A stretch of 64,000 bases of DNA from Pseudomonadota bacterium (lineage in GTDB: Bacteria; Pseudomonadota; Gammaproteobacteria; Eutrophobiales; Eutrophobiaceae). The position numbers and the translations under genes were made by a program. The stretch lies in the NCBI GenBank assembly GCA_013112535.1, contig JABFGI010000001.1, positions 306,414 to 370,413 on the forward strand, read 5' to 3'. Under the pieces are notes generated by a model. That model worked only from the letters and a program-made list of their open reading frames with translations. It was not told where the DNA came from and ran no database searches. Shown here piece by piece: positions 4,425 to 9,514 of the stretch; the first letter of the stretch is position 1, and each line of letters opens with the position of its first letter.

Positions 4425-6445
<2,021 letters not shown>

Positions 6446-6565
6446 GAGTTAAGCATGAAATAGGAGAAACTTACCTGAAGAACCACAATAATTTGTGATA
6501 TTTATGAGGATAGTTTCAAATTCATCTTGAATTGTACGAAAAATATCGTACAATTAGGGGCGTAA

Positions 6566-6862
6566 ATGGGATTTACAGATGCTAAACGACAAGTTATCAA
6601 TTGTCTAAATAAAGGACAATACTCTCATGAAGCGAGAGGTAATATTGATATCAAGAACTTGTTGGCAACAGGGGATGTTACGCCAGAAGACGTGGCAACA
6701 ATTCTTGGGCGCTCCAGAGGGAATGAGTATTCCTGTAGTCCTCATGATTACGATAGCAGTGTTGATGTGCATATCGTAAAGACAACACATCAAGGCATTA
6801 ACTGGTATATAAAGTGGTATTTTATTGAGCCTGATGTGGTTTTTATTAGCGTTCATCCTTGA
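6566..6862 (+). CDS. MqsR-family type II toxin-like protein (98 aa)
   Basis: Same length as E. coli MqsR. Colinear similarity: LNKGQ, ILGRSRGNEY vs IIGLSESDFY, YIKWYFIEPDVVFISVH vs YLKITVIHDVLIVSFKE. Overlaps the downstream gene by 4 nt. Confidence 0.7.
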   Translation: MGFTDAKRQVINCLNKGQYSHEARGNIDIKNLLATGDVTPEDVATILGRSRGNEYSCSPHDYDSSVDVHIVKTTHQGINWYIKWYFIEPDVVFISVHP

Positions 6863-7464
6863 GGTTAATTATGAAAATTCTAAAAGTCGGTGACACACAA
6901 AAAGCAGGGTGTTACCAATGCAAGAAAATTCAACCAGTGACCTTTCAGTTAAGAGATGTACCTTTTAGTGATGGTAGTGACATTGTAAAAGATGTATTGG
7001 TCGGAGTGTGTGATAAATGTGATTCTGTTGTATTACTACCGAGTCAATCTACTCCCTCAGTTAAAAAGCAGTTGGAAAAACAACGTAAACCACTTGAAAG
7101 CCGCTTGCCAGCACACATGATTGATATTCTTAATATGGCAAGTTTTACGATAGGCGCATCGACTGACTTTAATTCAAATTTAATAAAATATTATATACAT
7201 GCTTTATCAACAGAGCAGATTTCGCCAAAAGGTGTTGCCAGGTATTTAAATGCAGAGTTATTCAAAGGTAAATCACAAAAGCGACTTTCAATCAAAGGAC
7301 GTATGGTTGCAGATGAACTGAGTCGATTAAAAGAAATAACGCATATCGAAAGCACGTCTGATTTATTAAAAGGTATTATACTAAAAATCAATGATGATAT
7401 TTTAATTCACAAAAATAAAAAAAGAATTGAGCAACTAAAAACAATTATTTCTGCGACGGTATAA
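6859..7464 (+). CDS. MqsA-like antitoxin: N-terminal CxxC...CxxC zinc ribbon fused to an uncharacterised ~130-aa C-terminal domain
   Basis: N-terminus CYQCKK...TFQLRD...CDKCDS parallels the MqsA CPVCHQ...TFRGRK...CVHCEES. C-terminus is not a recognisable HTH-XRE domain. Confidence 0.55.
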   Translation: MRLIMKILKVGDTQKAGCYQCKKIQPVTFQLRDVPFSDGSDIVKDVLVGVCDKCDSVVLLPSQSTPSVKKQLEKQRKPLESRLPAHMIDILNMASFTIGASTDFNSNLIKYYIHALSTEQISPKGVARYLNAELFKGKSQKRLSIKGRMVADELSRLKEITHIESTSDLLKGIILKINDDILIHKNKKRIEQLKTIISATV

Positions 7465-7477
7465 AAATTTGTAAGAG

Positions 7478-7598
7478 GTCAGAGATTATGCAGATGAACA
7501 AGGTTTGGAAAATATGGATGAAGCGATTGAGAAAGGCATGGATGACATGTCAAAAGAGTTTAAAGAAAAGGGTAGTGAGATTTATAACAAACTTTAAA
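7478..7598 (+). repeat. Direct repeat copy 2: degenerate duplicate of the last 38 codons of thiC plus its stop
   Basis: Encodes [38 protein letters not shown], differing from the ThiC tail mostly by synonymous changes. No start codon or 5' part. Confidence 0.8.
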
Positions 7599-7751
7599 GA
7601 TTATGGATGACATCAATAGAGAAAATGAAAGGACTCAGGAACCTTCTAAAAGGTCTTTGTTAAAATATATTTCTTTAAATTTAATATTAACAATTCCGGC
7701 TGTATTTTTTTTATAACATTACTTTTTTATTATTTACTTGGTTCTGTAGAT

Positions 7752-8063
7752 GTGCATAGATCTAATTCTGATTACTCAAAACGCCCGGCTATTAATATTG
7801 CTATTCAAGAAATTGAAACTAACAATATATTTAAAAAGTTATTGGGAGATAATGTAAAAGCAGATTATGATAAAAATAGTAATATAAAATTTCTTGGTTC
7901 AGATGAACGAGTGTCCTTTAAAATTAGAGCGACAGGAAACATCAAGCAAAAAATATTATATGTTCATGCGATTAATAACAATCAATATGGGTGGTCAATA
8001 GAGACAGTAAAGACTAGAGATGAAAATCAAATGATTACTTTATATTCTTCCAGAAATCAATAG
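7752..8063 (+). CDS. Hypothetical protein, no recognisable family
   Basis: 103-aa ORF in an AT-rich stretch next to the thiC-associated islet. Confidence 0.35.
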   Translation: MHRSNSDYSKRPAINIAIQEIETNNIFKKLLGDNVKADYDKNSNIKFLGSDERVSFKIRATGNIKQKILYVHAINNNQYGWSIETVKTRDENQMITLYSSRNQ

Positions 8064-8065
8064 GG

Positions 8066-9514
8066 TCAGTTTCGGTTGAAAATAGTATGAGTACGTTGAC
8101 AAATTAATATTGCAAGAACAGCTAAAACAAATCCCGGTACTAATTCATAAAGATCAAACAACCAATATTCAGAAGTAATATTCTTCCATACAATTACGGT
8201 AATGCCACCAGTTAACATACCAACGAGTGCCGCATTACGTGACATGTTTTTCCAATAAAGTGATAAAAGAATAACCGGGCCGAAGGTGGCGCCGAAACCT
8301 GCCCAGGCATAGGCCACCAGATCCAATACATTGTTGTCTGGTTGTAAAGCGAGTGCAGTTGCAAAGAGTGTTAGTACAACAACGGCTACTCTACCGAATA
8401 GCATTAACTGTTTGTCGGTTACTTTTATATTAATAATTTTATAAATGTCTTCCGTTAAGGCCGATGACGCGACCAGTAATTGTGAATCAGCCGTACTCAT
8501 AATGGCAGCGAGAATTGCGGCTAAACAAATACCGGCGGGCAGGGGGTGTAACAATAATTGTAACAACTCGATAAATACCTTTTCACTATCGCTGGCCTGT
8601 AATTGATTTCCTAATAAAGCGATACCGGCAAAACCAATTAATAATGCGCTGATTAATCCAATTGCTGTCCAGTAAATAGCAATCGTACGTGCTTGCGGGA
8701 TCATTTTTTCAGATTTTATTGCCATAAAACGAACCAGTATGTGCGGTTGTCCGAAGTAGCCGAGTCCCCATGCTAGTAGAGAAATAATACCAATAAATCC
8801 TAATGGGCCATTCGTTATGCTGGTGAAGGGATTGACTAAGTCAGTGTTAATAATTGATATCCAGTTAAATAAAGCTTCAAACCCATGAAGGCTGTAAATG
8901 GAAATGAAAGCCACATAGCTCAATGCCAATGCCATTAATAATCCCTGTATCAGGTCGGTCCACGACACAGCGAGAAAACCACCAAGGCAAGTGTAGATAA
9001 GAATGGTTAGTGCGCCAATGATGACGGCCCATTGATAGGAAAGGCCAAAGACAGATTCGAATAACTTGCCGCCAGCGACCAGTCCTGAACTGGTATAAAA
9101 AAAATAAAATATAAGAATAAAAATTGCAGAAACAAGTCGTAATAGATGTGATGAATCATTAAAACGGTATTCAAGGTATTCCGGAACTGTTAATGCGTTG
9201 TTTAATGTTTGCGTCTGAACTCGTAAACGTGGCGCAACAAAATACCAGTTCATACAGGTGCCAATATACAAACCAATTGCGATCCATATCGCTTCTAATC
9301 CAGCAAGGTAGGCATAACCGGGAAGTCCTAATAATAACCATCCACTCATGTCAGATGCCCCCGCACTAATTGCCGTCGTCCATTTCCCCAGTTTCCTGCC
9401 ACCAAGAATATAGTCCGATTGACACTGTGTGCGTCGTAAGCCAATCCAGCCAATAGTAAAAATCAAGACGAGATAAATGCCAAAGGTAATAAAAATAATG
9501 CTTTGATCGGTCAT
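8066..9514 (-). CDS. SSS-family sodium:solute symporter (PutP-like)
   Basis: N-terminus closely parallels PutP (DYILGGR...ALSAGASDMSGWLLLGLPG); about 13 TM segments. Confidence 0.8.
   Translation of the reverse strand: MTDQSIIFITFGIYLVLIFTIGWIGLRRTQCQSDYILGGRKLGKWTTAISAGASDMSGWLLLGLPGYAYLAGLEAIWIAIGLYIGTCMNWYFVAPRLRVQTQTLNNALTVPEYLEYRFNDSSHLLRLVSAIFILIFYFFYTSSGLVAGGKLFESVFGLSYQWAVIIGALTILIYTCLGGFLAVSWTDLIQGLLMALALSYVAFISIYSLHGFEALFNWISIINTDLVNPFTSITNGPLGFIGIISLLAWGLGYFGQPHILVRFMAIKSEKMIPQARTIAIYWTAIGLISALLIGFAGIALLGNQLQASDSEKVFIELLQLLLHPLPAGICLAAILAAIMSTADSQLLVASSALTEDIYKIINIKVTDKQLMLFGRVAVVVLTLFATALALQPDNNVLDLVAYAWAGFGATFGPVILLSLYWKNMSRNAALVGMLTGGITVIVWKNITSEYWLFDLYELVPGFVLAVLAILICQRTHTIFNRN

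Follow-up and report, generated by a model that had tools for sequence, protein, structure and literature searches.

A large family of putative toxin-antitoxin gene pairs distantly related to MqsR/MqsA, with a predicted tandem ribbon-helix-helix domain in the antitoxin

The DNA analyzed here, hereafter called the window, is a stretch of 64,000 nucleotides (nt) from a gammaproteobacterial genome of the Eutrophobiaceae (assembly GCA_013112535.1, contig JABFGI010000001.1, positions 306,414 to 370,413 of the forward strand). A pair of small genes at window positions 6566 to 7464 is best explained, with good probability for the explanation as a whole, as a chromosomal type II toxin-antitoxin (TA) cassette distantly related to Escherichia coli MqsR/MqsA. 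The 98-amino-acid (aa) product of the first gene confidently models with the MqsR (RelE-superfamily) fold. The product of the second gene carries a four-cysteine zinc ribbon that is probably related to MqsA's N-terminal domain (MqsA-N), followed by a predicted DNA-binding domain in which two ribbon-helix-helix (RHH) units lie in one chain. The kind of TA system is itself known; what is new is the antitoxin with a predicted tandem RHH domain beside the zinc ribbon, a named operator and the altered MqsR-like residues. The pair is not an isolated oddity, being one member of a large family that has no Pfam or NCBIfam model. The features of the cassette are as follows, in window coordinates.

6527 to 6554, forward strand: sigma-70-type promoter (-35 TTGAAT at 6527-6532, 16-nt spacer, -10 TACAAT at 6549-6554)
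6530 to 6555, no strand: putative operator AATTGTACGA-AAAATA-TCGTACAATT, a palindrome with an N6 centre (core GTACG-N8-CGTAC at 6534-6551)
6566 to 6862, forward strand: toxin-like gene, ATG start, 98 aa, predicted MqsR fold (Shine-Dalgarno AGGGG at 6556-6560)
6871 to 7464, forward strand: antitoxin-like gene, 197 aa from ATG 6871 (Shine-Dalgarno GAGG at 6861-6864)
6901 to 7041, forward strand: N-terminal four-cysteine zinc ribbon of the antitoxin-like protein (residues 11-57; Cys codons at 6910, 6919, 7009 and 7018), presumed to bind the toxin
7093 to 7209, forward strand: predicted first RHH unit (residues 75-113; strand 75-79, helices 81-93 and 98-113)
7279 to 7458, forward strand: predicted second RHH unit (residues 137-179; strand 137-141, helices 147-157 and 162-179) with a terminal helix (183-196)

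Regarding the toxin-like protein, an AlphaFold2 model built with 44 homologues (predicted local distance difference test, pLDDT, 90.2; predicted template modelling score, pTM, 0.82) has an MqsR-like topology, consisting of helix 3-16, a short strand, helices 32-35 and 40-49, and strands 55-59, 67-75, 78-88 and 91-97. As in MqsR, the helices pack on a C-terminal antiparallel sheet of four strands. When this model was compared by Foldseek with 350,542 chains of the Protein Data Bank (PDB), the two highest-ranking chains were those of MqsR, first 3hi2_B (E 1.2e-4) and then 3hi2_D (E 1.1e-3), with probability 1.00, TM score 0.65, 95 columns and 16% identity. MqsR is the sole significant fold match in the PDB; the next matches, at E >= 0.05, are unrelated designed proteins. 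Profile-profile comparison by hhalign of 75 diverse toxin family members (alignment A4) with 33 MqsR sequences (A5) gave an E-value of 7.5e-4, albeit at a weak probability of 25%, over 84 columns that cover nearly the full length. The register of the C-terminal half is the same in this comparison, in single-sequence comparisons and in Foldseek. The original prediction, which was made from the letters of the window, had aligned the 98-aa protein colinearly with E. coli MqsR, and both methods reproduce that alignment, with the C-terminal half in the proposed register; nothing places the protein outside the MqsR/RelE-like fold. Common ancestry with MqsR is probable. Among other matches of the toxin family, a SHOCT-like domain appeared weakly in 7 of 44 members (best E 0.005) and was judged spurious because none was found in the broader toxin set. 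Weak antibody light-chain matches of the toxin-like protein and uL11 matches of the family profile, both among PDB sequences, were judged to be due to chance or composition.

The extent of the second protein depends on the choice of the start codon. The mechanical open reading frame (ORF) occupies 6859 to 7464 of the forward strand and encodes 201 aa from a TTG codon, as the original prediction reported together with the 98-aa frame at 6566 to 6862; these frames are present at those positions. However, the best 120 homologues listed are all 196-198 aa long, nearly all of them 197 aa, and the aligned homologues begin with M(K/N/R)I. Because of these lengths and starts, and because GAGG precedes ATG 6871, the product is most likely the 197-aa protein, beginning 8 nt after the toxin stop codon. 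The 4-nt gene overlap that had been described arises only with the TTG 6859 start and is probably an artefact, the intergenic gap likely being 8 nt.

The antitoxin model (AlphaFold2 with 34 homologues, which form family alignment A2; pLDDT 80.4) begins with a three-stranded zinc ribbon (strands 11-14, 19-31 and 38-47) that bears the four cysteines. C14-x2-C17 and C47-x2-C50 (197-aa numbering) are invariant in A2 (n=34), and TFQLR lies at residues 24-28. The CxxC pairs and TFxxR motif described earlier are thus present, but the pairs are separated by 29 residues rather than about 26. Foldseek ranked MqsA (3gn5_A) first for this domain, although weakly (E 0.026, probability 0.44), and isolated MqsA N-domain entries are also among the matches at E 0.5-1. 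hhalign against E. coli MqsA aligned 60 columns (E 0.0088) with the four cysteines in register with C3, C6, C37 and C40. Distant metagenomic members of the antitoxin family gave sub-threshold matches to Pfam MqsA_antitoxin (E 2.2e-4 and 4.8e-3; best score 21.8 bits against a cut-off of 30), which span only profile positions 3-68 of 131. A relationship of the ribbon to MqsA-N is supported by the top rank of 3gn5_A, the cysteine register, the sub-threshold MqsA_antitoxin matches and the toxin-first gene order, four signals that are individually weak but independent and in agreement.

The C-terminal extension (residues 73-197, about 125 aa) is of a different type from that of MqsA. In the model, a linker helix (62-72) joins the zinc ribbon to the first of the two RHH units. 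Distant family members give sub-threshold matches to Pfam RHH_1 at residues 140-176 and match RHH_1 or MobC_2 across residues 133-181. According to the model, the C-terminus is a single-chain tandem RHH pseudo-dimer, predicted to be the DNA-binding domain. This reading rests on predicted structure because the two units have no detectable sequence similarity to each other. The predicted structure contains no helix-turn-helix (HTH) XRE domain of the MqsA type. The C-terminus had been described in advance as roughly 130 aa long, lacking HTH-XRE and not assignable to any DNA-binding fold; its length and the missing HTH-XRE stand, and the region can now be assigned as a tandem RHH.

The promoter region contains a candidate target for this domain. 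The promoter matches the consensus at 9 of 12 positions, and the palindrome overlaps its -10 box: the left half-site comes directly after the TTGACA-like -35 element, and the right half-site runs into the -10 hexamer (CGTACAAT). In homologous loci the -35 element is often a perfect TTGACA, and TACAAT occurs at the same offset from the palindrome. When the 130 nt upstream of the toxin start were compared in 59 loci, the exact core GTACG-N8-CGTAC was present in 57; its distance to the start codon is 12-26 nt in 56 of these loci and 73 nt in the other. The core is also rare elsewhere: the 725 kb of fetched locus DNA contains 60 exact matches in total, and the 64-kb window contains one, in the cassette's own promoter, against 0.05 expected. 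Because the palindrome is near-universal, it is taken as a putative autoregulatory operator and almost certainly represents the phylogenetic footprint of an autorepressor site. MqsA recognizes ACCT-N(2-4)-AGGT, and no such motif occurs at 6401-6570.

The family is large. A word-indexed search retrieved 87 toxin clusters and 408 antitoxin clusters, all labelled hypothetical, and an exhaustive profile search retrieved at least 364 toxin clusters at 50% identity (E <= 1e-3). The main hosts are Gamma- and Deltaproteobacteria (Pectobacterium, Brenneria, Rahnella, Alteromonas, Idiomarina, Alcanivorax and Desulfuromonadaceae). The distribution is patchy, reaching over Gamma-, Delta- and Alphaproteobacteria and metagenome-assembled genomes (MAGs) labelled Cytophagia, Chloroflexota and Planctomycetes, at 50-70% identity. 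The adjacency of the two genes, which are co-oriented, is strictly conserved in unrelated genomes down to about 30% antitoxin identity and far exceeds chance. Brenneria roseae (P0037 and P0403) encodes both a canonical MqsR with PF15723 and a member of the new toxin family; therefore, the two families are distinct and able to coexist. One antitoxin-like homologue (P0204) carries a DUF4145 label in UniRef, which was rejected because a Pfam scan of that protein did not reproduce it.

The two genes decay unequally. Among 65 antitoxin-anchored loci with an intact antitoxin, the toxin is intact in 50, disrupted in 12 (L011, L012, L015, L025, L030, L039, L042, L049, L050, L061, L063 and L065) and absent in 3 (L024, L054 and L068), whereas of 70 toxin-anchored loci in which the toxin is intact and the sequence extends far enough downstream, 68 have an intact antitoxin and 2 a disrupted one. 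The difference between toxin loss (15/65) and antitoxin loss (2/70) is significant (Fisher p = 4.4e-4), with the proviso that the two locus sets come from different collections, genomes and metagenomes. The disrupted toxins are frameshifted or truncated, and their hosts include several Alteromonas, Pectobacterium and Idiomarina genomes. All orphan-antitoxin loci with a locatable toxin start have kept the operator. Such an asymmetry is the pattern that a harmful gene with a protective partner predicts, and in this indirect way it suggests toxicity of the first gene.

MqsR cuts mRNA at GC(U/A) sites independently of the ribosome, and mutational studies define the MqsR residues with which the toxin family can be compared. 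MqsR toxicity is relieved by K56A, Q68A, Y81A and K96A (PMC2791442), and cleavage in vitro is abolished by K56A and Y81A, Lys56 and Tyr81 having been proposed as an acid-base pair (PMC9636575). The equivalent columns were read across 75 diverse toxin family members in a register that is set by sequence profiles only and may be shifted by one residue in strand 4. In the catalytic pair, the tyrosine is kept (Y81 in the window protein; Tyr in 74/75) and the lysine is not: MqsR K56 corresponds to S56 in the window protein, in a variable column (19 Ser, 18 Glu, 7 Arg, 6 Thr, 5 Gln and 5 Lys of 75). Neither of the other two toxicity residues is kept in the family, Gln68 corresponding to V68 (Val in 63/75) and Lys96 to H97 (His in 74/75). 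The substitutions at K56, Q68 and K96 and the retention of Y81 had been predicted from the window protein, and the family columns bear them out. The MqsR family invariants Y81, K83 and S94 are all matched (K83 in 74/75; S94 as S95, with Ser in 75/75), and MqsR Y55 and P73 also have counterparts, position 55 being aromatic. In addition, the toxin family has a polar set of its own, namely R24 (74/75), K30 (71/75), N31 (75/75), H60 (66/75), H69 (59/75) and H97. The best-conserved stretch is an HE-R-x5-KNLL segment at residues 20-31 (window 6623-6658; H21, E22, R24, K30, N31, L32 and L33), which has no conserved counterpart in MqsR. Residues 21-30 are also the least confident part of the model (pLDDT 59). 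High conservation together with low model confidence would fit a loop that becomes ordered upon partner binding, and residues 20-31 are a candidate loop for binding RNA or the antitoxin.

Several results weigh against the relationship to MqsR/MqsA and the domain assignments described above. Neither window protein has a match at E <= 1 in Pfam, NCBIfam or PADLOC, and Pfam MqsR_toxin (PF15723), which all true MqsR homologues carry, matched none of the 44 and 75 toxin family members scanned, nor the window 98-aa protein at E <= 1. A search of PDB sequences with the toxin family profile did not retrieve MqsR, and the hhalign probability between the two toxin families is low. On the antitoxin side, the structural match of the ribbon to MqsA-N combines its modest Foldseek scores with a poor root-mean-square deviation, and hhalign detected no internal repeat between the two RHH units (E 0.34). 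Lys56, the loss of which abolishes MqsR cleavage (PMC9636575), is not conserved, and Gln68 and Lys96 are replaced. Since the PF15723 model and half of the catalytic dyad both fail, the toxin family is placed as a sister family of PF15723 and not as a member of it. Other searches were uninformative: phmmer of both window proteins against PDB sequences returned chance matches only, and PHROGs gave marginal matches (E 0.0028 and 0.27) to functionally uncharacterized families.

In the proposed mechanism, a single sigma-70 promoter would drive both genes, toxin first. The 98-aa product would most likely arrest growth through RNA cleavage, with a catalytic set differing from that of MqsR: Tyr81, Lys83 and Ser95 are kept, and His97, Arg24, Lys30, Asn31, His60 and His69 are candidates for the acid-base and phosphate-binding roles. 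The N-terminal ribbon of the 197-aa product, presumably a Zn(Cys)4 site and the counterpart of MqsA-N, would contact and neutralize the toxin. The C-terminal tandem RHH would probably repress the operon by placing one pseudo-dimeric domain on each GTAC half-site, so that the -10 box is occluded.

Three other explanations deserve consideration. The pair might be a TA system whose toxin no longer uses RNA cleavage of the MqsR type and acts instead, for example, by stoichiometric binding of the ribosome or mRNA or on another substrate, which we regard as unlikely. The unconserved Lys56, the replacement of Q68 by Val and of K96 by His, and the best-conserved, poorly modelled segment without a conserved MqsR counterpart speak for it. 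On the other hand, Tyr81, the other essential catalytic residue of MqsR, is kept in 74/75 members, as are Lys83 and Ser95; His97 is invariant in the family, Arg24 and Lys30 nearly so, and His60 and His69 are conserved in most members. RelE-superfamily ribonucleases (RNases) such as YafQ, YoeB and HigB carry varied sets of His, Glu, Arg and Tyr on one fold, the active site of YafQ being histidine-rich, so that a histidine in place of a lysine is a frequent way of achieving the same chemistry. The original prediction had offered two functional alternatives, an MqsRA variant with altered chemistry or a module with a function other than mRNA interference; of the two, altered RNase chemistry is tentatively preferred.

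A highly improbable explanation is that the pair is no TA system at all, the 197-aa protein being a transcription factor that the 98-aa protein assists, without doing harm, as a co-regulator or by sensing a ligand. Conservation of the 197-aa family is unusually high for an antitoxin (mean column identity of 75% in 34 aligned top matches, with invariant length) and the toxin-like gene is often decayed, yet the asymmetry of that decay is the one predicted for a harmful gene with a protective partner, the only operator within 64 kb is at the cassette's own promoter, and both fold and gene order match those of MqsR, a proven toxin. The remaining alternative concerns the biological role and is compatible with the TA explanation: the main function may be anti-phage abortive infection or stabilization of mobile DNA rather than a stress response, which is possible, if on the unlikely side. 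The phyletic spread is patchy, a 98.7% identical cassette occurs in MAGs of different phyla, contigs of the viral database IMG/VR carry the pair beside a phage integrase gene and DUF4917 or near an IS110 transposase, and the window cassette is lower in GC content than thiC upstream and is bracketed by a diverged duplicate of its target. Against such a role, there is no PADLOC match, the PHROGs matches are marginal and lead to families of unknown function, and in most genomes the pair stands alone between housekeeping genes instead of in a defence island.

The closest known system to the TA cassette proposed here is E. coli MqsR/MqsA (YgiU/YgiT; PDB 3HI2 and 3GN5; PF15723/PF15731). In both, the toxin gene comes first in the operon and encodes a protein of about 98 aa; the fold and topology (here predicted) agree, as do Tyr81, Lys83 and Ser94. 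The antitoxin has an N-terminal Zn(Cys)4 ribbon (here predicted) with cysteines in matching register, is structured in two domains and brings a DNA-binding domain of its own (here also predicted), and each system has a palindromic operator (here putative) in its own promoter. They differ in that the toxins are only about 16% identical, with no Pfam match at threshold, and in that Lys56 is not conserved, Q68 and K96 are replaced by Val and His, and the HE-R-x5-KNLL loop is new. Whereas MqsA dimerizes and binds DNA through a C-terminal HTH-XRE domain, the new antitoxin is predicted to have a single-chain tandem RHH of about 125 aa, and the putative operator is GTACG-N8-CGTAC in place of ACCT-N(2-4)-AGGT. 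The survey of Makarova et al. 2009 found YgiU-like toxins only with Zn-HTH or HTH-GepA partners and lists no RHH-type partner (PMC2701414). MqsR-like toxins were thus already known with more than one antitoxin architecture, but subfamily 2 of that survey, from Firmicutes phages, has an HTH fused to GepA and not a zinc ribbon with RHH (PMC2701414).

As for the RHH component, F-plasmid TraY and other single-chain double-RHH proteins (VirC2, single-chain Arc, MJ0366 and DndE) show 16-21% sequence identity; TraY serves as an accessory protein of the relaxosome rather than as an antitoxin, and lacks a zinc ribbon. RelBE, DinJ-YafQ, BrnTA and ParDE combine a toxin of the RelE-like RNase fold with an RHH autorepressor, as proposed here, but in these systems the antitoxin gene comes first, the RHH is formed by dimerization of two chains, and a disordered C-terminal tail takes the place of the zinc ribbon in binding the toxin. 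A literature search, outside which most subscription journals lay, found no paper on this family, on an MqsR-like toxin with an RHH partner or on a tandem-RHH antitoxin.

MqsRA has been much studied, and the Lys56/Tyr81 dyad and the structured zinc-ribbon/HTH antitoxin are treated as its hallmarks; the new family alters both. It therefore offers a natural experiment on which MqsR residues RNA cleavage truly requires, on whether the zinc ribbon can serve as a transferable toxin-binding unit beside DNA-binding domains of various types, and on how a palindromic operator is read by a pseudo-dimeric single-chain RHH. Pfam and NCBIfam models for the two proteins could annotate hundreds of pairs now called hypothetical proteins. 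As domain swapping is common among TA families, the finding extends known modular shuffling and overturns nothing.

The cassette of the window is bracketed by two copies of the 3' end of thiC, as listed below.

6329 to 6461, forward strand: left direct-repeat copy, made up of the final 37 codons and the stop codon of the intact thiC (6329-6443) and some 17 nt more
7483 to 7613, forward strand: right direct-repeat copy, an orphan thiC 3' end that starts 19 nt after the antitoxin stop codon

The copies are approximately 90% identical and spaced by 1154 nt. Over the 115 nt of coding sequence and stop that they share there are 8 differences, all at third codon positions and 7 of them synonymous; the probability that all 8 fall at third positions by chance is (1/3)^8, or about 1.5e-4. 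Because of this pattern, both copies evolved as functional thiC ends in separate lineages, implying that the cassette arrived by recombination, either together with the thiC end of a foreign source or at the cost of the native end. A simple target-site duplication is ruled out by this third-position divergence. Integron attC sites were also rejected as an explanation of the flanking repeats in the window, since these consist of thiC coding sequence.

Local direct repeats also bracket the cassette elsewhere, in 11/88 loci (L003, L010, L022, L027, L031, L039, L047, L058, L100, L142 and L145) against 2/200 shifted control segments, although these controls are mostly coding DNA (p = 6e-5). The repeats of the 11 loci, with lengths of 23-255 nt and identities of 76-96%, vary from locus to locus, several being REP-, hairpin- or terminator-like. 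They represent an unexplained tendency for which no mechanism is claimed. When the flank of L016 was widened to 1200 nt, a 62-nt repeat was found that duplicates the 3' end of a tyrosine-recombinase-like gene. The cassettes of L022 (5517-6720) and L027 (2129-3332), together with their flanking repeats, are 98.7% identical in MAGs labelled Desulfuromonadaceae and Chloroflexota, reflecting either recent horizontal transfer or mis-binning; attC sites are unlikely in both, as the R'' and R' consensus was unmatched by eye. Two Logan contigs resemble the window cassette. One (L001, SRR7904086; 1182 nt = 1154 + 28) is bounded by a 32-nt block common to the repeat copies. The other (L002, SRR10579382; 970 nt) is circularly permuted relative to the window, in the order antitoxin C-terminus, hybrid repeat, promoter, toxin and antitoxin N-terminus, with the crossover of the hybrid repeat inside the identical 32-nt block. 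No claim of an excised circle is made from either, L001 being explained as a block-bounded unitig and L002 possibly reflecting a circle, a tandem copy or an assembly mis-join at k = 31.

A bolder reading of the whole, which we hold to be quite unlikely, is that of an autonomous-looking 1.15-kb mobile cassette without an integrase that recombines via the 3' end of its target, here thiC, and encodes a His-based toxin and the first single-chain double-RHH antitoxin. The host gene would be regenerated while its native end is displaced, perhaps through what might be a circular or tandem intermediate. A His-based active site would have replaced the Lys56/Tyr81 dyad of MqsR, and the antitoxin would bind as one monomer per half-site, without the dimerization that other RHH or HTH antitoxins need.

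The genomic surroundings of the pair vary. In the window, the pair follows the gene for ThiC (PF01964, 621 bits) and precedes one for a sodium:solute symporter, the wider neighbourhood consisting of housekeeping genes, and in most genomes the pair is likewise a solitary insertion between housekeeping genes. In Pectobacterium it lies between a LysR regulator gene and tldD, and in other genomes within polysaccharide or metabolic loci. Four IMG/VR contigs carry the pair. In one (L156, 254-2454) it is directly downstream of a phage-integrase-family gene at the end of the contig or prophage, with DUF4917 nearby, and in another (L158, 4543-6971) it is near an IS110-family transposase gene. The GC content is about 42% in thiC of the window, drops to about 35% within the cassette and reaches 27-29% just downstream. 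The stretch of 27-29% GC at 7400-8200, after the orphan thiC end, contains an ORF (7752-8063, 103 aa) without a Pfam match and may be further foreign DNA acquired with the cassette. Upstream of thiC, a thiamine pyrophosphate (TPP) riboswitch (RF00059, 69 bits) is located at 4426-4515. As the mechanical thiC start, TTG 4509, falls within this riboswitch, translation probably begins at the ATG of 'MSAIPD...', which lies a few codons further downstream.

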